Shown piece by piece: positions 12,781 to 60,143 of a stretch of 64,000 bases of DNA. The position numbers and the translations under genes are program-made. A model generated the notes under the pieces. It searched no databases. It saw only the letters and a program-made list of their open reading frames with translations, and was not told the origin of the DNA. The number at the start of each line of letters is the position of its first letter. Position 1 is the stretch's first letter. The DNA comes from a virus, in IMG/VR virus record IMGVR_UViG_3300042402_007915, positions 83,226-147,225 of that record; one strand, given 5' to 3'.

Positions 12781-12809
12781 AAAGGGGAGGCACTAAGCCT
12801 CCCCCTTTT
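12781..12809. terminator. Bidirectional intrinsic terminator
   Basis: AAAGGGGAGGC-ACTAA-GCCTCCCCCTTTT hairpin between convergent operons, with A/T tracts on both sides. Confidence 0.85.
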
Positions 12810-13230
12810 ACTGTATATTGTATCTTGCTGAGTAATTTTCGTCCCGCTTCTCAAAGAAGAGGACAAAAAGTTCTGAACCGTCCTCTCTGATGAAGTGATA
12901 TGCATCGTGCAACAGGGCTTCGATATACTTTAAGGCCTCAATCGAACCACCAAATGCTTCCGTAACGAGGTTGGGGCCGAGAGTTAGATAAGTTCTCCAC
13001 GATGTTAAATTCGAATCGGATGTTTTGGTAATGAATGACGTACAAGAGTATGTGGTAGCAATCTCCTTACCTATACGAAAAGAGATGTCATCCAAAAAGT
13101 TGATAACAGGGTCTTTGCTTAGGGGCCAAGAGCTGGGCAGGCCTAATCGATGAGGACCTACCTGGGCAGGAGTAGTTTCAACTACGGTATCCCAAGCCGA
13201 AGATTTGGGAACCTCAAGGCTTAATCTCAC
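12808..13230 (-). CDS. KLNLE-SSxW paralogue family member
   Basis: GTG start overlapping the upstream TGA; begins VRLSLEVPKSSAW. Confidence 0.7.
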   Translation of the reverse strand: MRLSLEVPKSSAWDTVVETTPAQVGPHRLGLPSSWPLSKDPVINFLDDISFRIGKEIATTYSCTSFITKTSDSNLTSWRTYLTLGPNLVTEAFGGSIEALKYIEALLHDAYHFIREDGSELFVLFFEKRDENYSARYNIQ

Positions 13231-13658
13231 GAGTTTCTTCCTCTGTATGCGAAGTACCACTTACCATCGGGAGGTCTCCGAGAGAAATCGTAAACGTAAA
13301 TAGCGTCGCTATGTCTGCGTAGATTGCTGTATGCTCTTTCAAACCACTCAATAAGTTCCCTAAGGAAAGGGTCATTTGCATTTGGTAACGACGCAAAAGC
13401 CGTCTCTACCTCCATAACGGAGAATGCATGTGCATAGTCAATTCTGTGCGATGGAAGACTATGACACAAGACAACAGGAAGGTTTCGTTTAACGCCAGCC
13501 TCCAGTGCACAATGCAGAGATAAGGCATTTGCGAACTCTACACCATCAGAATATCGTTTCTGAAACACGTCAATTAAATCTGGAGAAGAAGCATCGCCTG
13601 CCTCTGAAGGAGGTACATCCCAAATTGAAGACCTAACTGAACCAAGGTTTAACTTCAC
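13227..13658 (-). CDS. KLNLE-SSxW paralogue family member
   Basis: MKLNLGSVRSSIW...ANALS...HSDAIYVYDF. Confidence 0.8.
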   Translation of the reverse strand: MKLNLGSVRSSIWDVPPSEAGDASSPDLIDVFQKRYSDGVEFANALSLHCALEAGVKRNLPVVLCHSLPSHRIDYAHAFSVMEVETAFASLPNANDPFLRELIEWFERAYSNLRRHSDAIYVYDFSRRPPDGKWYFAYRGRNS

Positions 13659-14086
13659 AGACCTCCTCCTCTGTATCCAAAGTAGGAATAAAAGCTAGAA
13701 GGGTAACGATTGAAGTCGTAAACGTAAATGGCGTCTTTGTGACACAATGAAGAACTATATGCTCTTTGAAGTGACTCGACTAAACAGCCTAAGAGCACAT
13801 GTTCTTTATCAGGCAACCTTGAGTAAGCCGTTTGAACGGTTTGTCGTTCCAATGTAATCCCTCGATAGTGGCTGTATTCATTACAATCGCTAAGCAAAGA
13901 AATGGGAAGGCCTCGCTTGTAAGCGGCTTCGGTTGCAAGATGCATAGATAATGCGTTCAAGAAGTCTATGGGAGAATCGTATTGTCTTTCAAATACGTCG
14001 GTCAAATCCAAAGGAGGGACAGCTTTACCTTCAGGTGGAACTGTATCCCAAATTGAAGATCTACTTAGCTCAAGGTTTAATATCAC
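13655..14086 (-). CDS. KLNLE-SSxW paralogue family member
   Basis: MILNLELSRSSIW...LNALS...HKDAIYVYDF. Confidence 0.8.
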   Translation of the reverse strand: MILNLELSRSSIWDTVPPEGKAVPPLDLTDVFERQYDSPIDFLNALSMHLATEAAYKRGLPISLLSDCNEYSHYRGITLERQTVQTAYSRLPDKEHVLLGCLVESLQRAYSSSLCHKDAIYVYDFNRYPSSFYSYFGYRGGGL

Positions 14087-14508
14087 CTGCCACCTCGATA
14101 CCCAACATAATGTCCACCCGGGCTGTGAAAACGAGCGAAATCGTAAGCGTAAATAGCCTGTCGATGTCTTGAGGACTCATAAGCGAGCCTAAGCCTCTGA
14201 AGGATAAACTGAACTTCAGGGCTGTCCTTATCTGGTAATGACCTGAAAGCCTCATCAACTCTTTCTTTATTTAACGTAAAGCCCCAAACAGTATCTCTAG
14301 TGGGAAAATAACAACATAAAAGACAAGGGATCTCCCGCTTAGAAGCGTATTCCTGTGCAAGTTCTAGAGACAATATATTCAGGAACCCTAAGGGGGTAGG
14401 ATAGTTTCTACCAAACAGATCGGTATGGTCCAAGGAAGGAGCGTCTATTGTTTCGGAAAGAAATCCTTCCCAAACAGATGATCTGGTTCCCTCAAGGTTC
14501 AGCCTCAT
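14083..14508 (-). CDS. KLNLE-SSxW paralogue family member
   Basis: MRLNLEGTRSSVW...LNILS...HRQAIYAYDF. Confidence 0.8.
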   Translation of the reverse strand: MRLNLEGTRSSVWEGFLSETIDAPSLDHTDLFGRNYPTPLGFLNILSLELAQEYASKREIPCLLCCYFPTRDTVWGFTLNKERVDEAFRSLPDKDSPEVQFILQRLRLAYESSRHRQAIYAYDFARFHSPGGHYVGYRGGR

Positions 14509-14930
14509 AAGTATCCACCTCTATACCCTGTATAGATAACAGGGCACGATGGACGGAGAGAAAATTCAACAACATTAATCGAACGGCAAAGCGGAGGTGT
14601 GACAGACAAAGGCACGTTACAAGTATGCCTAAAAGAGGAAATCAAACGCTCAATTTGAAGATCGTTTTTGTTTGGTAAGGACGAAAATACACTGTTTACG
14701 TAATCTTCCAGAAACGCGTAGGCCAAAATAGTTTTCTCCCCGAAGTCAGAAAGAAAAGCAAGCGGAAGGTTTTGTTCAGTTGCAATCTCTTGTGCAACAG
14801 ACAAGGACAATGCATTCAGAAACTCTAAAGCAGAAGTGTATTCCCTTTCAAAGATATCGGTGCAGTTCTTCTCTCTAGGTGAGATTGCATCCCAGAGAGA
14901 ATGTTTGGGAACGTTCACGTCAAGACGCAA
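14505..14930 (-). CDS. KLNLE-SSxW paralogue family member
   Basis: MRLDVNVPKHSLW...LNALS. Confidence 0.75.
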   Translation of the reverse strand: MRLDVNVPKHSLWDAISPREKNCTDIFEREYTSALEFLNALSLSVAQEIATEQNLPLAFLSDFGEKTILAYAFLEDYVNSVFSSLPNKNDLQIERLISSFRHTCNVPLSVTPPLCRSINVVEFSLRPSCPVIYTGYRGGYL

Positions 14931-15708
14931 AGGAAGACCTCCTGAGTTCAGCAGCTAGGGTTTTATTGGCAAGCTCTTGCTCTTGTGAAATAGATATCAC
15001 TTCAGCAAGGTACTTAAGCTCTGCAGCTTTAGCGTCCTCAAAAGCATCATGGTCGGGTTGTATTTGATCCATGAAATCCATAAGCCAATGATAGTTGACT
15101 AACTGATCAGAACAGTATTGAACAAAGTTCGTCTCATCACAGTTGCGAGCCACCATACTTTTGTCCAGGAAAGGAAACTCTCGCCGAGAAAAGTCTTCCC
15201 AGTAGTGATTGAAGTGAGCAGCATCAGCGAGTGCTGAAAATAGAACTCCAATTTTGTCCGGAGAAGGTCTTGGCATGTGGTAGTATTTGTCTTTGTAAAC
15301 AAAAGTGTACGTCGGAAAAGCTAATCTAACGCCATTGTTGGGAAGCATCTTTTTGATCGTAGAGACGAAAGGTAAATTCAAAAAGAAAATCGGTGACAGG
15401 AAGACAATCCCACAAAGAGTCAAAACGAATGCATTCTGGAGCAATACGCTTACGAGAAAAAGAAAGAGCAGACTTGCTAGCCACAAGTCCAGACTTACGT
15501 AGAAGTAAAAAGCAAGCTGCTGAGAGCTAACGGGCAAATTGTTAGTTTTAGCGAAAGTATTGCTCCGAACCAAAACGCGCACTTCTTTCTCAAAATGTGC
15601 CTTGGCTGGATGATTGTGGAGATTCTCATAAAGGGAGACAAGGTCTGCCTTAATCTTTAATTTCTGCTCAGTGGCCGATGAAGAGGTATTACCCTGGACG
15701 GTAGGCAT
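14920..15708 (-). CDS. Membrane protein with two TM helices, interrupting the array
   Basis: ATG at 15708 with AGGGGAG SD; long hydrophobic hairpin. Confidence 0.65.
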   Translation of the reverse strand: MPTVQGNTSSSATEQKLKIKADLVSLYENLHNHPAKAHFEKEVRVLVRSNTFAKTNNLPVSSQQLAFYFYVSLDLWLASLLFLFLVSVLLQNAFVLTLCGIVFLSPIFFLNLPFVSTIKKMLPNNGVRLAFPTYTFVYKDKYYHMPRPSPDKIGVLFSALADAAHFNHYWEDFSRREFPFLDKSMVARNCDETNFVQYCSDQLVNYHWLMDFMDQIQPDHDAFEDAKAAELKYLAEVISISQEQELANKTLAAELRRSSFAS

Positions 15709-16144
15709 TACTGAACAGTCTCCCCTGAATTTTAGAATCTCTGATATCTTTAGAATCAAAAGTAATTATGGGGCAATCACTCACAGCCACCCAATCCGCT
15801 ACAAAGAAGAAGTTATCTTCGTAGAGTCGAAAGATCCGACTAACAAAACGAGAGTGTGAAGTATGGTCTCCAAGGTAAGCTGCAATGATTTCGGGCATCC
15901 AAAAGTCATAGTCCAAACACTCAGGTACAGCAGGAGCTAAGTCCCATCTACGGGAATAATTGTTCCAGCCCTTACGGCGCAAGCCCTCTAGCTGCTGGCA
16001 ACTTGAAATTCCATTAGCCCAAACAAGAGCACTCTCAATCCGAAGAGAAATTTCTTTCTGCTTATCCTGCGGAACATTAGGGACAGCGTAAATCGGGCCC
16101 CAAATATTCTCTCTCAAGGTCTCCAAATTAAGTTTCAGGGACAT
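15689..16144 (-). CDS. KLNLE-SSxW paralogue family member (divergent)
   Basis: MSLKLNLETLRENIW...ANGIS. Confidence 0.7.
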   Translation of the reverse strand: MSLKLNLETLRENIWGPIYAVPNVPQDKQKEISLRIESALVWANGISSCQQLEGLRRKGWNNYSRRWDLAPAVPECLDYDFWMPEIIAAYLGDHTSHSRFVSRIFRLYEDNFFFVADWVAVSDCPIITFDSKDIRDSKIQGRLFSNAYRPG

Positions 16145-16569
16145 TACTGTAAGTCATCAAGAGTGTGACGTAGGACGAATACAAGATTCTCATCTTCGTT
16201 GTAGATAAAGGTATAAAGTCTGACCTTGTTGGCATGGAGGAGAAGGTTGTAATTTCTCCGTAAGAATTCGGTAAACCGCATCCTTTCTTCAAGGATCTTG
16301 CCGTCTTCGGTCTCTTGAAGAACTGCTTCTAAAATTTCCGACTCTTGAAAGGTATACACCTCTTGTACGGGAGAAGGTCTATCGTCAAGTAAAACAGATC
16401 GGCCCGCTTTGGTTAGTTTTTCTTGCTTTTCCAAAGCTAACTGTAAAGAAAGTTTGTTAAGTAAGACAATCGCTCTATCAATGGCAGATGCGTAGGTAAC
16501 CTCTCCAGTCAAAGACGTCTCGGTCAGCTCCCAGATAGAGCTTCTTGGGGCTTCAAAACTTAACTTCAA
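16144..16569 (-). CDS. KLNLE-SSxW paralogue family member
   Basis: MKLSFEAPRSSIW...LNKLS...HANKVRLYTF. Confidence 0.75.
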   Translation of the reverse strand: MKLSFEAPRSSIWELTETSLTGEVTYASAIDRAIVLLNKLSLQLALEKQEKLTKAGRSVLLDDRPSPVQEVYTFQESEILEAVLQETEDGKILEERMRFTEFLRRNYNLLLHANKVRLYTFIYNEDENLVFVLRHTLDDLQ

Positions 16570-16969
16570 AGTCGGCGCGCCTCCTCAAAAACAGAAAGAA
16601 CTTATCGTACCTAATTACTTTGAAACAATAGACCTTGTAACTATGTATTGAGCTTAGATAGTACTCTCGGATTCTTTCAGGAACCCAAGAGTTAGCAAAG
16701 TTGTCCGAAGCAAGATTTGCGTCAAACACATCTTCTACGTTATCTGCTAGAAGGAAAGCGGTAACTATTGTATCTGCGTTCTTGTCATCTTCAGGGGGAG
16801 ACCCAATGTCTGGATTCATTATTTGTCTGCCTCTAGCTTCGGCTTCGTAAACGCAGATTTTGTTTAGCTCTTCAAGAACAGGGTCTGCAAACTCAGGGGG
16901 CAAACGCTGCTGAGACATTTCCAACGCGTCCCAAACCCCTCCCTTTGCTGACTCAAGATTAAGTTTCAC
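16553..16969 (-). CDS. KLNLE-SSxW paralogue family member
   Basis: MKLNLESAKGGVW...LNKIC...SIHSYKVYCF. Confidence 0.75.
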   Translation of the reverse strand: MKLNLESAKGGVWDALEMSQQRLPPEFADPVLEELNKICVYEAEARGRQIMNPDIGSPPEDDKNADTIVTAFLLADNVEDVFDANLASDNFANSWVPERIREYYLSSIHSYKVYCFKVIRYDKFFLFLRRRADFEVKF

Positions 16970-17334
16970 TAGCGAGGCTTACCGAGTGAGTAATAGATCT
17001 TGCCGTCTCGCTCAAAGAAGTGCCAACGGGTAGAATAAGTGTAGAGGTTGGATATTCTATCTCTAATCTGAGCATCCTTCTCTTTCGAGTCCTTGCCTCC
17101 AAAAAAAGCATCCCAAGCAAACTCCAAATCACAAAAGGCAGCTCCTAAAAGCTCGGGATCTCTGACCGAAGGCGAAGTCTTTGTTGTCCTATGTAGGAAA
17201 TAGAACTCTGAGAGATTGTTAAACCAAGTAAGAAGACGCGACAAGTTTTCAGGGCTTTTTTCATATTTGGAATCAAAAGCTTCAGGAGCAGTACCCCAAA
17301 CACTACTTCTCTCAAGGTCAAGATTGAGTTTCAT
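16969..17334 (-). CDS. KLNLE-SSxW paralogue family member
   Basis: MKLNLDLERSSVW...FNNLS. Confidence 0.75.
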   Translation of the reverse strand: MKLNLDLERSSVWGTAPEAFDSKYEKSPENLSRLLTWFNNLSEFYFLHRTTKTSPSVRDPELLGAAFCDLEFAWDAFFGGKDSKEKDAQIRDRISNLYTYSTRWHFFERDGKIYYSLGKPR

Positions 17335-17696
17335 CGATCATGCCTGTAGGCAGTAAATCCTGAACTCGTCCGCCTTGCCGTATAAAGTTTGACTTGATGT
17401 CTATGCACAGAATGGCAATAAAGCTCTTGAATCTTATGAAATAGGCGTAAATCATCTTTCCCGTCAAAGGCGGCAAGAACCTCTGCTGTGGTAAAGCTGT
17501 CTCTCATCAAACTAGGATAGGGCCGCGCATCAATTGCGACGTTCAACTCGGCGGCTCTTTTTTGAGCAAGCGTATAAAGTAGGCCGTTAAGATAGACAAG
17601 GAGTTCAACACTCTTTTGTTGTTCTTGCTCTTGTGGAGTGAGCTCAGGCAAAGTATGCCAAATAGAAGATGGTTCCCCAGTCAAATTAAGTTTCAA
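17331..17696 (-). CDS. KLNLE-SSxW paralogue family member
   Basis: Likely TTG start at 17696: MKLNLTGEPSSIW...SVHRHQVKLY. Confidence 0.7.
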   Translation of the reverse strand: MKLNLTGEPSSIWHTLPELTPQEQEQQKSVELLVYLNGLLYTLAQKRAAELNVAIDARPYPSLMRDSFTTAEVLAAFDGKDDLRLFHKIQELYCHSVHRHQVKLYTARRTSSGFTAYRHDR

Positions 17697-18099
17697 AACT
17701 ACAAGCCCACTGCCTAAAGATACGGAATTCATTCTCAGCTTCTTCAAAGACGTAAAGGTATACCTTTTCTCTGTGAACACTCGAAAGATACAAGTTCCGA
17801 ATCGAAAGGATAAAACCATCCAAGGCTTCAAGGCGAAGATCTGCATCCGGAGAGGTTGATAAGTTGGCTTGTAAAGTTTCAAAAATAGATAGAATTGTAT
17901 CCTTATCCCAACTGTCGATTTGGATACGAGGCTCTGTTTCATAATTGATAGAAATCTGCAACTCATCCGATCTGCGAGCAGCTTCCCCTAAGGAGAGATT
18001 ATTCAAAAACTCAAGAATACTAGGAAACTCAGAGTTGGTAGAATGTGTCCTTGAAACATCCCACATAGTGGTAGGCTCTCCTTCTAGATTGAGCTTCAT
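17686..18099 (-). CDS. KLNLE-SSxW paralogue family member
   Basis: MKLNLEGEPTTMW...LNNLS...SVHREKVYLYVF. Confidence 0.8.
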   Translation of the reverse strand: MKLNLEGEPTTMWDVSRTHSTNSEFPSILEFLNNLSLGEAARRSDELQISINYETEPRIQIDSWDKDTILSIFETLQANLSTSPDADLRLEALDGFILSIRNLYLSSVHREKVYLYVFEEAENEFRIFRQWACSFET

Positions 18100-18500
18100 T
18101 TCTCTTGTCTCCCCATGTCTAAAGATGTTTGTGTTTTCTCTCGAAAAGTATAGAGCTGTACCTCGTGGAAATGGTTTGCAGATCCATATCTTAGCCTAAT
18201 CATTTCACGGAGCTGTTGATAGTGATTCCAATCTGCCAAAGTAACATCACCGACTTCAGTGGAGCCATAGGTATAAGCGCCTAAGGCCTGTGAAAGGGGC
18301 AGCTCCCTAACTGAAACAAAAGGCTCTGTCTGAAAATTGATATTCACTCCTAAACGGTTAGCTCTAAGATGGGCTTCGTCTAGAGACAATTGGTTCAAGA
18401 AAGTAATAAGCCTAGAGTGAGGAGTTTCCGGAGTCTGTGTAGTTGGTACATTCCAAAAAGAGGAGAGCTTCCCTTCAGCGGGAATAATAATGTGTACCAC
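18096..18500 (-). CDS. KLNLE-SSxW paralogue family member (altered N-terminus)
   Basis: Probable GTG start at 18500; KLSSFW...LNQLS...HFHEVQLYTF. Confidence 0.7.
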   Translation of the reverse strand: MVHIIIPAEGKLSSFWNVPTTQTPETPHSRLITFLNQLSLDEAHLRANRLGVNINFQTEPFVSVRELPLSQALGAYTYGSTEVGDVTLADWNHYQQLREMIRLRYGSANHFHEVQLYTFREKTQTSLDMGRQEK

Positions 18501-18864
18501 GCCTTCCTGCCTCGATATAATTACCGGAGACCCTAAAGACATAAGGCTTCACTCCATTGTCATGAATCGAATTGAGATACCAACTTCTTATCCTAGCGAC
18601 AATATTTGTATAGGATCGAGAAGTCTGACTTTCATCCTCATAGGCTAAAAGAACGTCGCTGCGTAAAATCCCTGCAACCCAAAATGGATCAGAAGGCAGA
18701 CACTCTAGTCCGCTACCTAACTGTGCAGCTCTTTCGGCTGCTAACCTGTAAGAAAGAAGACAAAGAAATTTCAGAAGCTGGTCTTCTTCATCTGATTCAG
18801 CAACGACCTGAGGTGAGGGTGCATCCCAAATGGTAGAACGTGGGGATTCAAGATTCAGTTTCAC
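18475..18864 (-). CDS. KLNLE-SSxW paralogue family member (first of the array)
   Basis: GTGA overlap; VKLNLESPRSTIW...SIHDNGVKPYVF. Confidence 0.75.
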   Translation of the reverse strand: MKLNLESPRSTIWDAPSPQVVAESDEEDQLLKFLCLLSYRLAAERAAQLGSGLECLPSDPFWVAGILRSDVLLAYEDESQTSRSYTNIVARIRSWYLNSIHDNGVKPYVFRVSGNYIEAGRRGTHYYSR

Positions 18865-19139
18865 TTCGGTCCTCGAGTGATGTAAATTGGTGGCCTGCCC
18901 GGGCCTCCTGGCCACCAGCTTCCAGGATAGCTTGTTTCAGGCTTAAGCTTACTTGCGGCGACGCAAACGTAAACAAGAGCTGACAATAAGAACAGGCCTA
19001 AGCCCACTTCAGCCCACGTATTATCTTTGGGCTGTATCGGTTCGTGATACAGATTGCACACATGCGCATGATAATTGTGCCCGTGAGATTGGGTTGAAAT
19101 ACGACTAGTAGTGTAGTGCAAATGATTAGGAGAGCTCAT
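18861..19139 (-). CDS. Small His-rich single-TM protein
   Basis: ATG at 19139 with AGAGGA SD; one hydrophobic helix. Confidence 0.55.
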   Translation of the reverse strand: MSSPNHLHYTTSRISTQSHGHNYHAHVCNLYHEPIQPKDNTWAEVGLGLFLLSALVYVCVAASKLKPETSYPGSWWPGGPGRPPIYITRGPK

Positions 19140-19300
19140 TTGACTTCCTCTTCTTTCTACGCGCTTTGCGGTTGAAAATAGGAGGAGGCTTGCGAACCGA
19201 GTAGCTACACAGATCTTCAAATAGTTCTGGATGGATCAGCACTGTATCAATGAAGAATGGTGTCGCAAGGGTCTCACGGCACCACTCTCCAAATTCGGCC

Positions 19301-28698: not shown

Positions 28699-29448
28699 TC
28701 AGTCCTTAAGGATTTCGGGTTTGCATTCCGTGAGAGCCGCAATAACCAAGTCTTCAATCTTGGCAAAATTCTTCTTAGGGGCGGGCTCAATAATCTCGTC
28801 AATGAGGCCAAACTTAAGTGCCTCCTTGGTTGTCATGGAGAAGTCAATGTTGTTCTCGAAATACTTCTTGAACTTCTTCTTTGACATCCCAGAGCGTTGA
28901 ATAACAAGCTTCTTCAACCGCTTGGCAGTAAGCTGATACTGCCTGTAGTTAGTAGCTGCCTGGATCGGGTTGACTGTCATATTCATTGAAATGGCCTCAT
29001 GCCAGAACAGTCTTGTGTTTGGGTATGCAAGACGGCAGTTGCCAGCCTGGAGGATAAGGAAGCCCGCAGATGCACAGTCGCCCATTGCAATAGTTACAAT
29101 CGGGCAAGGAGAAGATACTAGCGTGTCGTAAATAGCAAAGAATGCAGTTACGTCTCCGCCTCCCGAATTGACATAAACGTAGATCGGAAGAGTATCACTG
29201 TCCTGCTGTAGAGACCAAATCTGGGTACAAATAGCTGCGGCCAGTTGCTCGTTGAACTCTCCAGTAATCAGAACAGATCGACTTTCTCTTCCAAGGCCGA
29301 CTACTGAGTTCGGCGTCCAATCCTCAGGGGCCGAAATACCTGTGATCATACCAGACTCGCTACCCTCTAGAAGCTCGGTATCTGAACCCTCATCATTTTC
29401 CGGGTCACAATCCATATTGACTTTCGTCAGAGGCCTAAAAGTTGTCAT
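28699..29448 (-). CDS. clpP: ClpP-family serine protease
   Basis: YVNSGGGDV, CASAG (Ser), FWHE (His), IDFSMTTKEALKFGLIDEI (Asp). Confidence 0.9.
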   Translation of the reverse strand: MTTFRPLTKVNMDCDPENDEGSDTELLEGSESGMITGISAPEDWTPNSVVGLGRESRSVLITGEFNEQLAAAICTQIWSLQQDSDTLPIYVYVNSGGGDVTAFFAIYDTLVSSPCPIVTIAMGDCASAGFLILQAGNCRLAYPNTRLFWHEAISMNMTVNPIQAATNYRQYQLTAKRLKKLVIQRSGMSKKKFKKYFENNIDFSMTTKEALKFGLIDEIIEPAPKKNFAKIEDLVIAALTECKPEILKD

Positions 29449-51423: not shown

Positions 51424-52273
51424 TCATATCCGATGCAAGAGTACAAATAGCTGAACGGTACTGAGTCTTTAGCTGACTCAACGAAGAAAGAGGACTAAGC
51501 ATAAACGGCTCACTCTTAAGTAGAACCGACATGCCAGCAGGATCGTCCTTAGTAAACGTAACGTCAGCCTGAGTTGGATCTCCCAATAGAATCAGCTTGC
51601 TGTTTTGTCCGACACGAGAGATCAACGTATTAAGCTGATGCCAACTCATGTTCTGAAACTCATCAACAATGATTACAGAGTTATCGTACGTGTTGCCTCT
51701 CATGAGCTCAACAGGTACGAACTTCAATGCCTCTCTATTCTTCCCTGCAGCCAAATATGAAGTAGCTCTGGAGCCAAGGATTTTCCTGACAATGATCTCG
51801 AACGATTCGAGATAAGGTGCGTACTTCTCGTTGATGTCTCCAGGTACAGGACCGAAAGCCTTACCACTACCTACCATGACTGCTGGCTTTGAAAGAATAA
51901 TCTGAGTGTCCTTAAGGGTCTGCTGTGCATGCAAAGCATAAGCCATAGCAAGAAGAGTCTTGCCAGTACCTGCTGGACCAATACAAACATTCAAAGGAAT
52001 AGTGGGGTTAGTTAGGGCATCACAAAAAGCGCCTTGGTTGAGACCCTTGGGAGCGATGTCCCCAACCTTAGTAGAGTTTTGCCGTAACAAGAAGCGCCCG
52101 TCGCCAGCATGACGAACCAAAGCGGTTCTCTTGTTATCGGTATAAGACCTAAGGTTCATGTAAGAATTAACTGGCAATGATGTAGGCAGGTCCAAATGAA
52201 CTGCACCTTGAGCAAAGGCTGCATCAATCGCCTCTCCATCAACGCCAATTTCTTCAACTAAATAAGACTCCAT
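51389..52273 (-). CDS. phoH: PhoH-family ATPase
   Basis: GPAGTGKT, MRGNTY, DEFQN, SRVGQNSK, GDPTQ. Confidence 0.9.
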   Translation of the reverse strand: MESYLVEEIGVDGEAIDAAFAQGAVHLDLPTSLPVNSYMNLRSYTDNKRTALVRHAGDGRFLLRQNSTKVGDIAPKGLNQGAFCDALTNPTIPLNVCIGPAGTGKTLLAMAYALHAQQTLKDTQIILSKPAVMVGSGKAFGPVPGDINEKYAPYLESFEIIVRKILGSRATSYLAAGKNREALKFVPVELMRGNTYDNSVIIVDEFQNMSWHQLNTLISRVGQNSKLILLGDPTQADVTFTKDDPAGMSVLLKSEPFMLSPLSSLSQLKTQYRSAICTLASDMNDYYRKTRITG

Positions 52274-52304
52274 TCTTTCTATCCTCCTGGATGAGACGAA
52301 ATAT

Positions 52305-52331
52305 AAGGCCCCCTTACAAGAAGGGAGCCTT
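52305..52331 (-). terminator. Probable terminator ending the Ubl operon
   Basis: AAGGCCCCCTT-ACAAG-AAGGGAGCCTT imperfect hairpin, then ATATTT on -. Confidence 0.55.
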
Positions 52332-52336
52332 GAGTA

Positions 52337-52630
52337 CTAGCAGGTGCCTACAAGGGCAGCGTGCGTGATAAATGGAACAAGAGAGAAAGCTCCCTTGACG
52401 GACTTGTTGACACCAATCTCCGACCAAGCGCGGAGGGTAGTGCCAGCAAAACTGGCCTCGGGGATGGGAGTCCCGTCGACGTCGACGTCGTACTTCTGGC
52501 CGCCGGGGTTCCAGTCGGCCAGGGCCTTGGCGATCGTGGGATCGCTGAAGACCTGGCGAAGAGTGCCGTTCTCGGGGAGTTCAACGGGAAGCTTGCGACC
52601 ACCAGGGGTCAGGGTGACGATTACTCGCAT
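52337..52630 (-). CDS. Ubiquitin-like (beta-grasp) protein with C-terminal extension
   Basis: MRVIVT...VELPENGTLRQV...VDG......LRAWSEIGV..VKGA plus a 16-aa tail; adjacent to E1. Confidence 0.7.
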   Translation of the reverse strand: MRVIVTLTPGGRKLPVELPENGTLRQVFSDPTIAKALADWNPGGQKYDVDVDGTPIPEASFAGTTLRAWSEIGVNKSVKGAFSLVPFITHAALVGTC

Positions 52631-53388
52631 GTTTGATCCTTACGATGACGTGTAGTAACGGAGATTCCGTTTGTACAGTCAATAATGATCTGTAGCGGGA
52701 ACTTGAAATCGGTAGACTCAGAAGCTTCCCACTCTCGAACGCACTCGACGAAGAGATGGGTAGCAGAACCGACTAGGAGAGAGACCGGCGCCGGACAAAT
52801 CTTCATCGTACAAGGGAGCTCAGTAACCTCGTTATCATCCTTCAAGGTATGATACCACGCCTCGTTAGTCTCAAGACTCTCGAGGGGGTACAAGAAGAAG
52901 GAGCGGCCAAAATCGAAACCCAAGCGGAAGTCGATAATGACCGGAACGATTGCGCCGGACTCTCGTACGAGCTTCCTAATCTGATCAACGATTGAACGCC
53001 GAGCAGAGAAGGAGTCAACACCCAAGAAGACGAAGCCGCCACGACCAGTCTTGTGAGCCATATCGGTAGTCTCGGTGAACTTACCGTGAAGGTGACAGAC
53101 GATGTCGGACCGGAAATCAGTAAGAACAAACTCAAGCGCTTCGGTCTTAAGCATACCAATCTGGTAGCGACCAAAGGCCTGATTGGCACAGTTGTAGTCT
53201 TCGACTACATCTCCGTCGTAAAGATGAAACTCGGTAAACCCGAGTCGAGCAAGCAACATAGCTGCATTGCTTCCAACAGCTCCACACCCTACGATGTGGA
53301 TAGGAGGCCGATCCTTCTTCTCCCCGAACCAAGCTGAATGCCTGGTGAAGGAAGGTTCAGGTGTAACCCTATCGTCTTGTCTTTTCAT
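52621..53388 (-). CDS. E1/ThiF-family Ubl-activating enzyme
   Basis: VGCGAVGS, YDGDVVEDYNCANQ, K.EAL, GVDSFSARR, DFR.G, and candidate catalytic ELPC. Confidence 0.9.
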   Translation of the reverse strand: MKRQDDRVTPEPSFTRHSAWFGEKKDRPPIHIVGCGAVGSNAAMLLARLGFTEFHLYDGDVVEDYNCANQAFGRYQIGMLKTEALEFVLTDFRSDIVCHLHGKFTETTDMAHKTGRGGFVFLGVDSFSARRSIVDQIRKLVRESGAIVPVIIDFRLGFDFGRSFFLYPLESLETNEAWYHTLKDDNEVTELPCTMKICPAPVSLLVGSATHLFVECVREWEASESTDFKFPLQIIIDCTNGISVTTRHRKDQTCE

Positions 53389-55157
53389 GCCAACCCCGCA
53401 GCAAACTCTTCCCAGCCCGCAAAAGGATTCTGATCGTCCTTTTCAGCGGTATCGGGAACTGGAACGAGTGACGTCGTCAAAGCCTTTTGAACTGACCCGC
53501 CCGAAGGGACAGAATCAGAACCAGACTCAAAGATATAGGTAAGGCGGAAGACATCGTTCTTGAACGAGTCGATAAGGATATCTACAGTATCCGTCAGCAT
53601 CCTTTGCGAGAGGGCATCCGGAGAAACCATAAAGGTGGCAAGCTGGAAGGCGTAGAAATAAACCATGAACGAATGAGTAGTGATGTTCTGATCGTTCAAG
53701 TGAGCAGCAAATTTAGCTCGGTTAGGATGAGTAGTAACAGAGTTCTGCTTAATGGTTTCACAAATGCTAGTGATATACTCAATGCTTAGAACCTGAGTAA
53801 GAACGGCTTTCAGGCTGTTAACAACGACAGTAGCTTCAGTGGCGGTCGTGGTAGCGTCTTTGCGGAAGAGGAAAGTACCGAGTAGATGCGAGAAATTAAG
53901 GAAGTGCAAGAAGACTTCGTCCTTATGCAAATCGTTTACGGTCGCATTGCTGAACGTGTACGAATATTCCTGGTTAACAAAGTAGGAATAGACCTGCTTC
54001 TCTGTCTCAAGTTTCCGTACGTTCTGGGTGTCATAGAAACACTCAAAGAAGCAAAGAAAGACTCGGTAGAGAGAATCTGTGCGATGCTTATAGGCTTGCG
54101 CCTCAAGCATCTTGCCGTAAAGGCCAAGCATTGGGGTTCGCCATTCGCAAACCGAGAGAAGATCGAAGGGCGTGTAAGTAGTGGAAGCATGGCCAAAGGA
54201 CTTCATCCCCTGGCTCTTTTGAAAGTCTTCAATAAGTTCGCAAGCATCATCAACGGCTTCAATGCAAGTGGCTGCTCCAGCAAGCTCTTCTTGCACATTG
54301 ACAGTAGGCCTAAAGGTACTATAGGTACCAAAGGTGTCAAAGAGCTTCCGGTAAGCATCGAATAGAGGCGGAGAAGACAAGGAGATCGGAGTCTTCGTGC
54401 TATCGCTTTTGGAAGAACTCGAGCTCTTGCTCGTCCCGTATCCCTGCCACTGCTGAGAAGAATAAGTGGTGGCCTTAGGCCTGACGCGACTCTTGCAAAC
54501 TTCGGTCAGGCCTTGGGAAAAACCCGGATCAAGCAACTGAACCGGAATAGCCTCGAGTTCGCGACCGATCTCTGCATCCCGAATGCGAACGAATAGCTGT
54601 CCGTCAAGGTTGAAAATAAGCATCGCACAAACGGGAGAGTCGGTGAAAGCAGACTTCCACTCCTCCCACTGAGTGTTATCCGTGCCCGAAGGGGTTGCGG
54701 TCATCTTTACGTGGGAATGACACCACGTATTGTAAGACCGGAAGTACTCATTGGCACGCTCCATGCGCGTGCCGTATTCTTCGAAGCTGATAACTTCTAC
54801 GGTGTTCGGCTCACTGCCGGCAACAGTAACCGTAGTATCGTCACGCTCAAGGCGAAGACAACCAAAGCGGCGCTCAATATCCTTGCCAAGCTTGGGAGCA
54901 TCCACAGCGTTGGACTCAACGTAGGTGCCCTGAACTTCTTGCCAAGGAACCTCGGGGACACCCTTGAATCGGTAAATCACTTCTTCAGCATTGCGTCGAG
55001 CAACCTCGAGCTGAAGATAGAACTGAATCTCAGAGGGAGGGGTCAACCCTCCGGCGTAGCCGCAAACCGCAAGCGCGTCGATCCACGTCTGTGTATCCAT
55101 AAACGCCCTGGGGGTCGGCTTGACAAGAAAAGTCCCTTGCATCTTAGGACTAAGCAT
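53385..55157 (-). CDS. JAB/MPN+ metallopeptidase with large C-terminal helical domain
   Basis: ATG at 55157 (GGAGG SD); SEIQF Glu, QEV, WCHSHVKMTATPSGTD. Confidence 0.8.
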   Translation of the reverse strand: MLSPKMQGTFLVKPTPRAFMDTQTWIDALAVCGYAGGLTPPSEIQFYLQLEVARRNAEEVIYRFKGVPEVPWQEVQGTYVESNAVDAPKLGKDIERRFGCLRLERDDTTVTVAGSEPNTVEVISFEEYGTRMERANEYFRSYNTWCHSHVKMTATPSGTDNTQWEEWKSAFTDSPVCAMLIFNLDGQLFVRIRDAEIGRELEAIPVQLLDPGFSQGLTEVCKSRVRPKATTYSSQQWQGYGTSKSSSSSKSDSTKTPISLSSPPLFDAYRKLFDTFGTYSTFRPTVNVQEELAGAATCIEAVDDACELIEDFQKSQGMKSFGHASTTYTPFDLLSVCEWRTPMLGLYGKMLEAQAYKHRTDSLYRVFLCFFECFYDTQNVRKLETEKQVYSYFVNQEYSYTFSNATVNDLHKDEVFLHFLNFSHLLGTFLFRKDATTTATEATVVVNSLKAVLTQVLSIEYITSICETIKQNSVTTHPNRAKFAAHLNDQNITTHSFMVYFYAFQLATFMVSPDALSQRMLTDTVDILIDSFKNDVFRLTYIFESGSDSVPSGGSVQKALTTSLVPVPDTAEKDDQNPFAGWEEFAAGLA

Positions 55158-57645
55158 TGAGCAGCTCCTCCTTTGCCTCGACCTTGGTGGTCTCGGTCTT
55201 CTTTTCGATACAAATCGGCAGCACAAAGCTATTGAAATCAACCCTGTTTTCTGACGTGATCTTGTAATCGAAACGGAACCGAGTAGTTTTCAGGACCTTG
55301 ATTCCAATATTAGTTTTGTCAACCGTATCCAACCTAAAGAGGTTGTCTACGCAGTCCCAAACCACAGATCTCTTCAGCTCAGCAAAAATCTGTGGGAAGT
55401 TAATCTGAACTTGGGTGTCTGTTTGAACAATACCCTTAGAATCAGCAGGTACCGTGAGAAGAGCATATGGAGTGATTTGAGCCGGATCATAATGTCCTAG
55501 CGCAGTAGAAGACTTGGCTAGCGATGCATAAACGTTTTCGACAAGAACAGAAACGGTTCCATCTTTCGGGTTGTAGTAACCGCGCAGAGGAGCCAACACC
55601 TTCTCAGCGACAAGGACTTTTTCCTGAGGCTGACCCACAAGGCCACGAAGAGTTGTGTGTAGCGGAGACTGTGACAAGTACGCGCGAATAAATTCATTAG
55701 ACCAAGCATCATCTGGGCCTGTGTTGTTCTTAATCCAACTAAGAGCAGCCTTGAGAGTAGAGAGGAGATCGCCACTCTCCATAAAGGGAGACACAAAACC
55801 TCCAAAGGTTCCTGTGCAAGGTCTGCTCCAGCCTTGGATTTCGACTGCAGAGCCGATATGGGGATGGAGTTTATAGTTCGAAACCTTATACATGACTGTG
55901 TCTTCGAGGCCACGAATCATGAGACTCGAATCTTCGACGATGACCTCGAACGGACCCACAAGCGCAATGTGGTCTTTGGGTTTCGAATCGAGGACGTTCA
56001 CGATAGGAGTCGATAGAGTGAAATGCACCTTGTGCAAACACTTTACCTGGAAGGGATTGAAATCGGCAGGAATGTTTGGCACGAGTTTACCATTTTCCTG
56101 CGTGAAGGTAATGTAAACCCGATTACCGTTTTGCATACCATAATGCACTTCATGGATAGTAATCGAATTCAGTTTACAGAAGTTAATGAAAGAAGTGGTG
56201 ACATGCTGCGCCGTACGGTCTACAGGAAGAACGGAAGCAAACAGCGTAGCAATCTCTGTCGGAGGAAGAATCTTGGCTTTGTAACTGGCAATGTTCCCGT
56301 TTAACGCAGTGATAGCAGTTTCATGCTCGGTAATGCTTCTTTGTAGGGCTTGGATATCTCTTCTGCAGCGTTCGATAGAGGCTCGACGAACGTCAAGGCT
56401 GTCCTCGCAAGACTTAATTTGCTTCTCTAGGTTGCTTTGGTTTAGCAGAGTATCTGCTACCGCCTGAATCTCAGAAGGGTAGTTGGTATACACCCCTCGT
56501 GCGACTCTGGAGACCATTGCAACCTTAGGAAGGAAATCTTGTGGCATGCTAGGCTCTACAAACTTCGAAGCCAGAGACAGCTCGCCAGGACGCTTAGCCA
56601 AGTCTCCGAGCTTAGGAACGTGAATCTTACGCTGAAGATAAGTCCTTACGCCCCTCAGCTGAGTGAGAACGGTCTGCGCAAAGATAGTCGGGTCTACCTC
56701 AAAGTCTTTTGTAAGAATGAGAAGCTGGCCTGCATAGACCTGAGTGTAGTAGACCCTGCCGTCTTCTTCGAAGCCTCTGAACGGGACTGGCTTATCTTCA
56801 CACCAGTAGACCTCTCCGGCCGAAGTGCAAACAAACCTTCTAAAGACATGAGTAAATTGATACTGTTTCATAATGGCTTCACTACAACGCAGAACAACTA
56901 CATCTTGCCTTCGGGCGGGATTGCCCTTGTGCTCAAGAGAATAGAAGGTCTGTACGTCGTCGGGATAAAACATCTTGAATCTGTGTGAAAGCAGCGCCCA
57001 ACCAGGCTCGCTTACTTCTTCACGGTCCATCCCAAAATGGAAATTGCGAACAGTGTGAAGGCAGAACGTATCGTATGGACTGTATTTCCTATCGGCATTA
57101 TAAAGGGCCTTTGTCTTAGGCTCTTCCAAAAATGCCGCTAGGATGCTCGCCCAAACAGTAGCTTCAAAGTATTTCAGATCCTGGAAGAACGCTTCCGGGG
57201 CTTTATAAACGTACGGGAAAGCAGTCTTGTTACCGCCGTTGTAATTTACATTTCTGGGACGATAGCGCTCCCCAGTAGCAGCAAACTGAAGAACAGAATA
57301 AGACTGACTGGTAGAGTTAGACCGATAAAGAGAAGTCCAATCACCAAGACTGTGCTTACGACCTCTTGGCAGACGACCAAAGTTGTAACTATTTGGGAAT
57401 GTCGTCTTGAGGGTATCAAAAGCATCAAGGATAACATCGGCAACAGCCTGAACCGATTCGGCAGTGTCATCATCATTCCAAGAGAAGGGAATGTTAGTGT
57501 AGGTCCGCGAATCGTGATCAAACAACATGAGAACGATACCATGTCTATAGTAAGTAAGGTTTGTTTGCAAAAGTGACGAAATGGCAGAGAGTCCTGCACT
57601 AGGACACTCCGCCACATCGATATGGACAGCGCCGACTACCGCCAT
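55150..57645 (-). CDS. Large protein with coiled coil and prokaryotic E2-like domain
   Basis: ATG at 57645 (GAGGAG SD); central coiled coil; LHPHI-x(11-12)-PCTG motif resembling the E2 HPN...C motif. Confidence 0.55.
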   Translation of the reverse strand: MAVVGAVHIDVAECPSAGLSAISSLLQTNLTYYRHGIVLMLFDHDSRTYTNIPFSWNDDDTAESVQAVADVILDAFDTLKTTFPNSYNFGRLPRGRKHSLGDWTSLYRSNSTSQSYSVLQFAATGERYRPRNVNYNGGNKTAFPYVYKAPEAFFQDLKYFEATVWASILAAFLEEPKTKALYNADRKYSPYDTFCLHTVRNFHFGMDREEVSEPGWALLSHRFKMFYPDDVQTFYSLEHKGNPARRQDVVVLRCSEAIMKQYQFTHVFRRFVCTSAGEVYWCEDKPVPFRGFEEDGRVYYTQVYAGQLLILTKDFEVDPTIFAQTVLTQLRGVRTYLQRKIHVPKLGDLAKRPGELSLASKFVEPSMPQDFLPKVAMVSRVARGVYTNYPSEIQAVADTLLNQSNLEKQIKSCEDSLDVRRASIERCRRDIQALQRSITEHETAITALNGNIASYKAKILPPTEIATLFASVLPVDRTAQHVTTSFINFCKLNSITIHEVHYGMQNGNRVYITFTQENGKLVPNIPADFNPFQVKCLHKVHFTLSTPIVNVLDSKPKDHIALVGPFEVIVEDSSLMIRGLEDTVMYKVSNYKLHPHIGSAVEIQGWSRPCTGTFGGFVSPFMESGDLLSTLKAALSWIKNNTGPDDAWSNEFIRAYLSQSPLHTTLRGLVGQPQEKVLVAEKVLAPLRGYYNPKDGTVSVLVENVYASLAKSSTALGHYDPAQITPYALLTVPADSKGIVQTDTQVQINFPQIFAELKRSVVWDCVDNLFRLDTVDKTNIGIKVLKTTRFRFDYKITSENRVDFNSFVLPICIEKKTETTKVEAKEELLNA

Positions 57646-58094
57646 GCGGTTTCTCCTCTGTGATACAGCTCTCTTGTGTAATAAAAGAAAAGAAAACGGG
57701 TCTCTTGCCTTATTGTTAGATGCGAGTAGTAGTGATCCCAAAGGGGTTTGAAATAGAGGAAAGTTTCTTCAGCTAAAGCCTTCCTCTTGTTCTCTAGGTC
57801 TCCCAAAGAAAGCTCTGCTTCTAATGGAAAGGATAGATTAGTGAAGTCTTCAGGCCTACGGTAGAAGCACTCGATAAGCGATTCTTCAAATATGTCGGGA
57901 GGCAAAGAAAACCCCCTCGAAGTCGTATGAGAGATTAAGCCAAAATCTCTGAAAAACTTCGAGGGGGTCAGCTGTGTTTCCTCGACCTCAAGGAATTCCA
58001 AGTACATCTTGAGTGTACTTTCTTCTACTACTGAAGGAGTAGGAACAAAGAGTCCTAAATAGAACCGTTCCCTTGCCTTTTCCGAATTGGTCAA
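57636..58094 (-). CDS. Hypothetical protein in the Ubl operon
   Basis: Overlaps its neighbours on both sides. Confidence 0.55.
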   Translation of the reverse strand: MTNSEKARERFYLGLFVPTPSVVEESTLKMYLEFLEVEETQLTPSKFFRDFGLISHTTSRGFSLPPDIFEESLIECFYRRPEDFTNLSFPLEAELSLGDLENKRKALAEETFLYFKPLWDHYYSHLTIRQETRFLFFYYTRELYHRGETAWR

Positions 58095-58330
58095 TAAGCT
58101 CCTTCAGGGACCTCAAGGAGGGGACCGTAGCACACTGGACAGGTGGCTGCAATTTCTTCAGCCTCCACAGCGTCGGCAACAGTCTCCCAAGCACACCTTG
58201 TGTCAAGGCAGGCTAGAAGGTACCTTTCCGAACCGAAGGCCTGAAAGGACAGACCACCAGAATCAGAAACCAATTCTGGCTGTTGTACGGATTGGTCTAG
58301 CGGTTTGTTCTTTGAGGTAAGCGGCATCAA
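58091..58330 (-). CDS. Small zinc-ribbon protein (start uncertain)
   Basis: CLDTRC...CPVC. Confidence 0.55.
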   Translation of the reverse strand: MMPLTSKNKPLDQSVQQPELVSDSGGLSFQAFGSERYLLACLDTRCAWETVADAVEAEEIAATCPVCYGPLLEVPEGAY

Positions 58331-60143
58331 TTAAAACCTTTGAGGTACCGTGAAGGTAAATAGAAGTAACTGCCTTCTTCAGAATACGGCGCACCCTCAG
58401 CTCAATCTGTCGTAACTGAACCTCTTCGATAAGAGTTTCAATTGCTTCGTCTGCAAACTTGATGTCGTAATCATAAGGGCTTGTTAGCAGATTATACTCT
58501 GCGTAGATATTGGGAATCATATACTTTGTTAGGATAATCCGGCGCTCATCTTTTGTGTACTCACGAAACCGAATGATCTCCATACGGTCCTTCAAGGCTG
58601 GGGGGATATCCTCTTCTTCATTCGCGGTACAAATGAACAACACCTTAGACAGATCAATCGGCAGCTCAAGGTATCTATCAGAGAAACTTGTGTTCTGCTG
58701 AGGGTCTAAGATCTCAAGAAAAGCTGCTGTTACTGGACTATATGACCCGCGCATAGGTGTCTTGTCAATCTCGTCAAGAATGATAAGTGGATCCATACAC
58801 TTGGCCTGCTGGAGAATAGAAACAATCCTACCTGCCTTGGAGGAAACATAAGTCCGCCTATGACCGCGGACTTCTGCCTCATCGGTAAGACCACCCAGCG
58901 GTAACGAAAAGCAAAGGCGATTACTAGCCGTAGCAATACTCTTGGCGATAGAGGTCTTGCCAGTGCCAGCAGGACCAGTGAAACAAAGGACACCACCAGT
59001 TTGTCGGCCAGTAATCTTTTCAATAACAAGATGCTCTGTTAGCACATCCTTAACCTCACCAAGTCCGTAATGAGTAGAATCCATTAACGACCTAAGATTT
59101 GGAAAGTCAATCTCTTTGGCTCGAGTGACTCCCCAGGGAAAAGACAGTATCTGATCGGTCCAGTCCAAGAGGTTATTCGCCTCTTGTCCAGTAGCTCGAG
59201 ATAGCTTCTTCAACTCGTAGAGCAGCTTCTCCTTATGAGTCGCAGGAATAGCATTGAGCCGAGCCTTATTCTCGGTTGAGATATCAAAATCATAAACAGG
59301 CTCTGAATCTTCCTTCTTCTTTTTGGGGGTAGAAGTCTTCTTTGGAGCCTTATCTTCGGGCTTAACCTTGAGAGGAGCGCCTGTAAAAGAGGAAATGACA
59401 TCTCGTCGTGAATTGAATAGATCGGAAAGGGCCGCAGAAAGGATGGTCCACTGGTCGTGTAGACTTCTCGTCTGCCCTTCTCCGTCAAAGAACAAATTGA
59501 GCCAAGAGTCAACATTGTTCTTGTATAGGAAATAGGCCGTTACATAAGCAAAGGAAACATACTTGTTTTGGTAGCTTTCGTACTCTGGTGGATGGCCTGC
59601 TAGTGGCTGCAAAGCAAAGATTGTTTGCTCCTTGCCAAAAGAGTCAGAGTAACAGTGGCCAAAATAGTTCTGGCTCTCCACCGCAATATAGGTGTTGTAA
59701 ATATCAATCAGCTCATAGCTTGGAGGGTTCTCTTCTTTGAACTGTACCTGAGCAAAATTCAACTCTATGTTTTGGTTTTCAGAGGCCGGAGAGTTGCTTA
59801 GGACGATGTTCTCGGGAGGACAGAACGCAATGATATTGCCTGAAATAAGCAAATCTTTGTTCTCGATGGCCTGCTCAATATTGTCAGAAAAATATTCAAT
59901 AGTGACTCCGGCAAAAGCGTAAAGCACTCTTGTGATCTCTGTCTCACTAGGAAACCTAAAACACAAGAGAACAAAGGTGTGCTGCCCGAAAGCAGTATTC
60001 GCAGACAAATAGTCTGTGAACTGATCAGCCGGAGCAAAGGCTAACGACCAGTTGTCTGGACCGTAATTGAAGTATCTCCCTGGGTAGGGGAATTGGATAT
60101 CGGCTCCGTCAATGTAGAAGAACGGAACACCAACGGACTTCAT
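58263..60143 (-). CDS. Lon-type AAA+ ATPase lacking the protease domain, with novel N-terminal domain
   Basis: FPW, HYGL..VK, GPAGTGKTS, DEAEVRGHRRTY, LDEIDK, LEILDPQQN, DLSKVLFICTAN, DRME; ends RIGF. Confidence 0.85.
   Translation of the reverse strand: MKSVGVPFFYIDGADIQFPYPGRYFNYGPDNWSLAFAPADQFTDYLSANTAFGQHTFVLLCFRFPSETEITRVLYAFAGVTIEYFSDNIEQAIENKDLLISGNIIAFCPPENIVLSNSPASENQNIELNFAQVQFKEENPPSYELIDIYNTYIAVESQNYFGHCYSDSFGKEQTIFALQPLAGHPPEYESYQNKYVSFAYVTAYFLYKNNVDSWLNLFFDGEGQTRSLHDQWTILSAALSDLFNSRRDVISSFTGAPLKVKPEDKAPKKTSTPKKKKEDSEPVYDFDISTENKARLNAIPATHKEKLLYELKKLSRATGQEANNLLDWTDQILSFPWGVTRAKEIDFPNLRSLMDSTHYGLGEVKDVLTEHLVIEKITGRQTGGVLCFTGPAGTGKTSIAKSIATASNRLCFSLPLGGLTDEAEVRGHRRTYVSSKAGRIVSILQQAKCMDPLIILDEIDKTPMRGSYSPVTAAFLEILDPQQNTSFSDRYLELPIDLSKVLFICTANEEEDIPPALKDRMEIIRFREYTKDERRIILTKYMIPNIYAEYNLLTSPYDYDIKFADEAIETLIEEVQLRQIELRVRRILKKAVTSIYLHGTSKVLIDAAYLKEQTARPIRTTARIGF

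Follow-up and report, generated by a model that had tools for sequence, protein, structure and literature searches.

A probable phage-encoded ubiquitin-like conjugation pathway whose tag is predicted to end in alanine or asparagine

Bacterial ubiquitin-like conjugation has so far been characterized only as host (anti-phage) defense. In the Bil systems of types I and II (BilABCD) the ubiquitin-like protein (Ubl), the E2, the JAB deubiquitinase and the E1 are four proteins (10.1101/2023.09.26.559546; PMC11601603). The CBASS enzymes Cap2 and Cap3 combine an E2-E1 fusion (Cap2), which carries a CD-NTase substrate through a thioester relay and accepts a C-terminal Ala, with a JAB isopeptidase (PMC10097602). 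Bub types I and II bring together Ubl, E2, E1 and peptidase, with multi-Ubl proteins among them (PMC11601596), while in class 6d of Iyer et al. (2006) and in PRTRC-type systems the Ubl, the JAB protein, the E1-like and the E2-like protein each have a gene of their own, at loci that are mobile or occur sporadically (PMC1779556). Here we describe four overlapping genes in a 64,000-nucleotide stretch of viral DNA (the window), the final 64 kb of the 147,225-bp record IMGVR_UViG_3300042402_007915, which probably give a phage its own pathway of ubiquitin-like conjugation, with a tag that ends in a residue other than glycine (Table 1). The record is 99% complete, is classed as a provirus and holds portal, head protease, major head and tail-sheath genes, and therefore represents a myovirus-like phage.

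The first-pass annotation of this DNA had proposed a minus-strand set in the order E2-like, JAB, E1 and Ubl, and all four open reading frames (ORFs) are found at the positions it gave, with overlaps of 8, 4 and 10 nt between consecutive genes. The motifs on which it relied are likewise present: HPH at residues 594–596 and C610 (codon TGC, 55818-55816) in the 831-residue protein, E43, H147, H149, S157 and D160 in the JAB protein, G34xG36xxG39, D58xD60xVE and C193 in the E1, and in the Ubl a KGA that ends at residue 81 and is followed by a 16-residue tail. The same gene order is kept in about 70 loci of related phages.

The phage system would work like Bil, with four separate proteins, a capped Ubl predicted to be trimmed by a JAB protein, a probable Cys-based relay and no recognizable E3, but it is phage-encoded and departs from Bil in its gene order, in the architecture of its E1, in its E2 motif and at the end of its tag. 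Bil genes run Ubl-E2-DUB-E1 rather than E2-JAB-E1-Ubl. BilD has IAD, AAD and CYS domains and a four-Cys zinc site, whereas the phage E1 is a bare 255-residue ThiF with one invariant Cys. The His of BilB follows the Cys, whereas in the phage protein a His-x-His precedes it and all invariant His lie upstream; BilA ends in Gly, the predicted phage tag in Ala or Asn. The defining features of the other systems are lacking as well. The class 6d E2 has a downstream rather than the classical His and its Ubl a conserved C-terminal Gly; that class also features a JAB-N domain with conserved Arg and Trp and an alpha-helical partner protein (PMC1779556). The phage proteins do not match PF14460 (Prok-E2_D) and reach only 18 bits against the PRTRC ThiF model TIGR03736 (cut-off 145). 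Unlike Cap2, the phage E1 and E2-like proteins are separate and would act on a beta-grasp tag; PADLOC E1-E2 matches to the E1 are confined to its P-loop region, and the neighboring genes are not CD-NTases, the rest of the genome not having been searched for one. The Bub systems differ in their fusions (Ubl-E2, JAB-E1 or E2-E1), an E1 without catalytic Cys, oxyesters and DUF6527, which matched none of the flanking genes scanned; in the phage family the E1 Cys is invariant and each Ubl repeat has its own, predicted cleavable end.

The Ubl adopts the expected beta-grasp fold over residues 1–79, nearest to SAMP, MoaD and ThiS. Among 117 distinct Lys-Gly Ubl domains the next residue is Asn in 102 and Ala in 15, and never a second Gly. 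Thirty-three Ubl genes stop right after this Asn or Ala, none stops after the Gly, and the sequence downstream is free. The junctions of poly-Ubl genes (2–4 units) fall directly after Asn, with the Met of the next unit kept in two cases. A ThiS profile alignment places the Ala/Asn on the terminal Gly position, and several structural alignments set residue 81, in an unreliable region of the model, on the last Gly of SUMO1 or of a ubiquitin variant; other structural alignments do not. At the predicted cleavage site neither the canonical Gly-Gly nor a terminal Gly is seen (KG-A here, KG-N/A in 117/117). Judged from these sequences, the tag most likely ends not in Gly but in Ala in this phage (Lys79-Gly80-Ala81, Ala codon 52390-52388, cap residues 82–97) and in Asn in most relatives. 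Most E1 substrates end in Gly; for a terminal Ala, CBASS provides a precedent (PMC10097602). Eukaryotes have head-to-tail polyubiquitin, capped forms and ubiquitin-fusion genes with Gly-Gly junctions, and some polyubiquitins carry one-residue caps; the phage relatives show parallels in Ubl repeats joined head to tail, in capped Ubls and in fusions of the Ubl domain, but with junctions after Asn.

The window holds a single capped Ubl copy, and copy number varies among relatives. Many Asn-type Ubls (L015:11289-11576, L017, L030, L033, L035, L068, L078 and others) bear a conserved tail of ~25 residues rich in Gly, Arg, Ser and Pro, which would be freed as a peptide and looks too conserved for a mere cap. 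A ~95-residue domain that belongs to no PHROG family follows the poly-Ubl repeats as a fusion in L036:8833-9768, L063, L089, L095, L098 and L104 and is a separate gene elsewhere (for example L014:9428-9721), an arrangement that resembles ubiquitin-ribosomal protein fusions; it is absent from the genome studied here.

The precursor is probably processed by the JAB protein, in which E43, H147, H149 and D160 are invariant in 16/16 sequences. The E-xn-H-x-H-x7-S-x2-D motif, as scored by regular expression, is present in 82/85 relatives and in one more with a 1-residue insertion, while the match to Prok-JAB (E 0.009) is under the Pfam cut-off. Were the JAB protein to cut one residue earlier, between Lys-Gly and Ala/Asn, the tag would end in a single Gly and the Ala/Asn would serve as a cap or P1' recognition residue. 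Lys and Gly are indeed the sole invariant residues, a Gly end is usual among E1 substrates, one-residue caps are familiar from eukaryotic polyubiquitin, and JAB residue 159, beside a zinc ligand, partly tracks the Ala/Asn split (0.79). Nevertheless, none of the 33 uncapped genes stops after Gly, the ThiS register speaks for the later site, and the perfect covariation lies in the E1 and not in the JAB protein, so that we consider the earlier cut unlikely.

The E1 retains R16, a P-loop (with V38 in this phage), D58/D60, K81, D125, R130 and a lone invariant Cys (C193, codon 52812-52810), and lacks the zinc CxxC pair. Apart from position 38, these residues are invariant in 65/65 relatives, so that the P-loop, Mg-binding Asp, Lys and Arg finger are all in place. 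C193 lies at the crossover-loop position. It occupies profile position 178, the last one aligned to E. coli ThiF (1zud), where it pairs with chain residue 184, the active Cys of ThiF. Asn69 stands in place of the usual pyrophosphate-binding Arg of the N-x-x-R-Q motif in 65/65 relatives (residues 68–71; 53175-53186, minus strand). The E1s of Flavobacterium phage FpV4, of crAss-like phages and of a gut phage record (L004) are also without this Arg. In that record (L004:3257-8291) a Ubl ending in K-M-D-N-A plus three residues is followed by a coiled-coil E2-like gene, JAB, E1 and a reverse-transcriptase-like ORF.

P-loop position 38, which adjoins the residue equivalent to MoeB Gly41 (PMC12355090), is Thr in 49/49 Asn-type loci and Val or Ile in 16/16 Ala-type loci. 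It is the sole column of 308 that splits the two types, and the split holds for two long-branch Asn-type loci. The tree needs two changes, yet it does not reject the Asn type having arisen only once; the split is therefore suggestive and no statistical proof that the E1 is co-adapted to the tag end through residue 38. The ThiF-type enzyme MccB acts on a C-terminal Asn (PMC12596934), and with 102 of 117 Ubl domains ending in Asn one could picture the E1 of these relatives forming a succinimide and a phosphoramidate, the Ala-ending copy being a side branch. We regard such chemistry as extremely improbable: Ala-ending members are incapable of succinimide formation yet keep all catalytic residues, they lie on deeper branches under midpoint rooting, and Ala-type and Asn-type members alike have kept the E1 and E2 cysteines without exception.

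The kinship of the Ubl fold to SAMP, MoaD and ThiS, together with ThiF as the best named NCBIfam match of the E1 (under cut-off), could instead point to a sulfur carrier, the E1 making a Ubl thiocarboxylate that host sulfur donors would use for tRNA, DNA or cofactor thiolation. Gly-Gly is absent, however, and no linked sulfur donor or acceptor of the ThiS, MoaD or Urm1 pathways was found. The first-pass remark that thiG and moaE are missing nearby extends to the whole genome: ThiG, MoaE, a TtcA/TilS-type ATPase, rhodanese and desulfurase are all lacking from the 99%-complete sequence in searches whose positive controls worked (host enzymes might still take part), as are tRNA genes. The invariant Cys-bearing E2-like gene, moreover, is always attached, making a sulfur carrier highly improbable.

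The E2-like protein comprises a variable N-terminal region of ~395 residues, a coiled coil (~396–460), an E2-like domain (~480–660) and a variable C-terminal part. The domain carries H594-P-H596, C610, W637 and D646-x-W648, and a His-Pro (HPH, not HPN) lies upstream of the invariant Cys in 62/62 complete domains. A Foldseek search of its model against the PDB gave no significant match, and solved bacterial E2s are absent among the 50 matches listed, results with which a UBC fold is still compatible. Foldseek against viral models returned only unnamed or uncharacterized phage proteins, profiles of the E2 and JAB proteins run against PDB sequences yielded only noise, and Pfam, NCBIfam, PHROG and PADLOC contained no E2 or Ubl family that matched.

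Whether a relay through this protein would end on proteins can be weighed from its architecture and from the E1. The E1 is minimal, without a UFD domain, and of the named structures its nearest by sequence are UBA5, PaaA, TcdA and MccB; no E3 is recognizable, and the cGAS work kept targets other than proteins open (PMC10097602). These points would suit a non-protein acceptor, for which Atg8 is a precedent and which might be a lipid, a nucleotide, a nucleic acid or a small amine, or else a charged E2 as the working product. On the other hand, the long, fast-diverging regions flanking the E2-like domain resemble protein-binding modules, and a non-protein acceptor appears distinctly improbable.

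Relatives were recovered by a profile search with the E2-like domain, which gave five distant relatives on contigs carrying the same block, and by scans of viral and metagenome collections, which added about 90 loci. Single-protein searches gave little (the E1 in viral contigs; E2 and JAB domains in annotated phages), the whole E2-like protein as query had one match, and a Ubl pattern scan had none confirmed. The order E2-JAB-E1-Ubl is nearly universal among these loci, PhoH, Whirly and SpoVG genes usually follow the block, and the catalytic residues of E1, JAB and E2-like proteins are all invariant across 60–85 relatives with an overall identity of just 15–35%. Comparison with L005, the nearest relative, shows purifying selection on each of the four genes (nonsynonymous divergence 0.06–0.32, synonymous divergence 1.0–2.6). 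Cores are conserved (E1 91%, JAB residues 1–230 88%, Ubl core 86%, E2-like core 71%), whereas flanking regions diverge faster (46–64%; JAB residues 260–590, 52%). Given this selection and a gene order kept in about 70 loci, the operon is not a chance assembly. Near-identical DNA occurs in lake-water metagenomes. An artefact or frameshift was ruled out by zero indels in the block in four other lake samples and by equal tail length in relatives. In a separate phage group (L019–L022) JAB and E1 precede a ~1300-residue protein that weakly matches the E2-like profile (E 0.002–0.015), with no Ubl detected within the fetched DNA.

GTDB, scanned with each prokaryotic species represented by one genome, gave a single match, a 158-kb contig (L036) in a metagenome-assembled genome of an uncultured Bacteriovoracaceae, which is probably a binned phage, or else a weak lead to the host. 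Given the near-universal order, the usual neighbors and this lone prokaryotic match, the block is a core trait of a phage clade, set among replication and host-takeover genes, and not a captured bacterial defense island. This bears on the proposal that counter-defense or phage-phage competition is the main role, the JAB protein stripping host Bil or CBASS tags, the Ubl decoying host E1s, or the provirus tagging incoming phage. In its favor, the bacterial systems characterized so far act against phages (10.1101/2023.09.26.559546; PMC13276650), this record counts as a provirus and Ubl copy number varies; however, a decoy or lone deconjugase has no need of invariant E1 and E2 cysteines, the non-Gly end and E1 co-adaptation suggest a private, self-contained pair, and counter-defense genes are patchy while this block is clade-wide and fixed in position. 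Such a role is thus quite unlikely as the main one.

In the conjugation pathway that we favor, the JAB protein would first cut the 97-residue precursor after Ala81, a site deduced from relatives, to leave a beta-grasp tag ending in Lys-Gly-Ala. The ThiF-type E1, probably a homodimer, would adenylate the tag carboxylate and hold the tag on Cys193 as a thioester, from which it would pass to Cys610 of the E2-like protein and finally be joined to amines on its protein targets. In place of an E3, substrates would be selected by the coiled coil and the rapidly evolving N-terminal region, possibly helped by a zinc-ribbon protein, and by analogy with BilC and Cap3 the JAB protein may also strip the tag. 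The most likely purpose is control of proteins during infection. The earlier claim of a protein-tagging pathway is thereby upheld in part: the genes, the Ubl and E1 family folds, the invariant residues, the synteny and the pattern of Ubl termini bear it out, while the cleavage site, relay, targets and purpose we infer.

Table 1. Features of the conjugation block and related genes in the window
Feature	Position	Strand	Remarks
Ubl precursor	52337..52630	-	97 aa
Stand-alone ThiF-type E1	52621..53388	-	255 aa; Pfam ThiF E 1.5e-16
JAB/JAMM metallopeptidase	53385..55157	-	590 aa; JAB residues ~10-230, then fast-evolving lineage-specific C-terminal region
Large E2-like protein	55150..57645	-	831 aa from ATG
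Hairpin just 3' of Ubl stop	52305..52331	-	terminator-like, weak U-tract
152-aa ORF, no known family	57636..58094	-	overlaps E2-like start
~60-aa four-cysteine zinc-ribbon gene, likely TTG start	58091..58273	-	no family match
Lon-type AAA+ ATPase without protease domain, C-terminal IGF	58263..60143	-	TIGR00763 E 7e-90
ClpP, distant from block	28699..29448	-	PF00574 E 3e-35 at genome 112011-112511

The first-pass annotation began the gene chain at 57645, but the overlaps run on upstream through the 152-residue ORF, the four-Cys gene and the Lon-type ATPase to 60143 and beyond. The hairpin that was said to close the chain is present (11 pairs, -17.5 kcal/mol, z -2.2) and resembles a terminator, with only a weak U-tract; its sequence is identical in two relatives with largely saturated synonymous sites. 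Conservation is not confined to the hairpin: everything from the Ubl stop to the start of PhoH (52271-52331, minus strand) is almost identical in relatives near synonymous saturation. No convincing promoter was found (4 against 9 expected). A gene of similar size occupies the place of the 152-residue ORF in L005, L012/L013 and L016 and is absent from many relatives. A C-x2-5-C…C-x2-C gene lies directly upstream of the E2-like gene in 56/58 loci, and its zinc-ribbon product is a candidate adaptor or E3-like factor. Between ATPase and zinc-ribbon genes, several relatives have a gene matching Gad2 (PF26128; L010:3715-4476, L014:3850-4677, L015:6027-6794), with none at the corresponding place in the window. 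Elsewhere in the window (12808-19220, minus strand) lie ~12 tandem genes for proteins of 120–280 residues, most with a similar leader at the start.

The TIGR00763 match of the ATPase spans model positions 259–570 of 795. The gene falls inside the fetched flank in 37/58 loci, and IGF is found near the end of 19/33 ATPase C-termini. Only its position ties it to the Ubl genes, and with ClpP as a possible downstream protease, tagged proteins could possibly be routed to both, which is the weakest step of the scheme. Unrelated housekeeping genes are as syntenic as the ATPase, so that the link to degradation is conjectural. A complete tag-and-destroy system is a rather unlikely extension. In it, the Ala/Asn-ended Ubl, an E1 co-adapted to this end, a giant E2 that itself selects the substrates, the zinc-ribbon adaptor and the Lon-derived ATPase docking via IGF on phage ClpP would degrade tagged host proteins; if true, the phage would possess a viral equivalent of the ubiquitin-proteasome system, made from bacterial parts.

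Phage FpV4 (KT876724) and crAss-like phages (cr111_1, MT774387) encode a homologous ThiF/E1 beside replication genes, and the genes upstream of it specify an HxH…CxG protein, a protein with a JAB motif and a putative Ubl, which has K-x-G-[GA] at an internal position and then continues into a long tail. They differ in that the order is Ubl-E2-JAB-ThiF, with the Ubl candidate first, and in that the E2-like profiles align weakly (hhalign probability 12%); their genes are annotated merely as thiamine biosynthesis, metalloprotease or hypothetical. We found no description of a phage-encoded pathway in the open-access full-text literature (subscription journals are not covered), and PMC7886860 and PMC7824862 do not mention one.

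This large freshwater phage and about 70 of its uncultured relatives thus carry genes for ubiquitin-style tagging. A tag that ends in Ala or Asn and pairs with a single residue of the E1 P-loop would depart from the terminal-glycine rule in a directly testable way, and tag and matched E1 could yield an orthogonal tagging pair; the cultured FpV4 and crAss-like phages offer a practical test bed. A phage version would explain the 'thiamine biosynthesis' genes of crAss-like and Flavobacterium phages and, being clade-wide, would show phages using as a core tool the same chemistry that bacteria use in defense.

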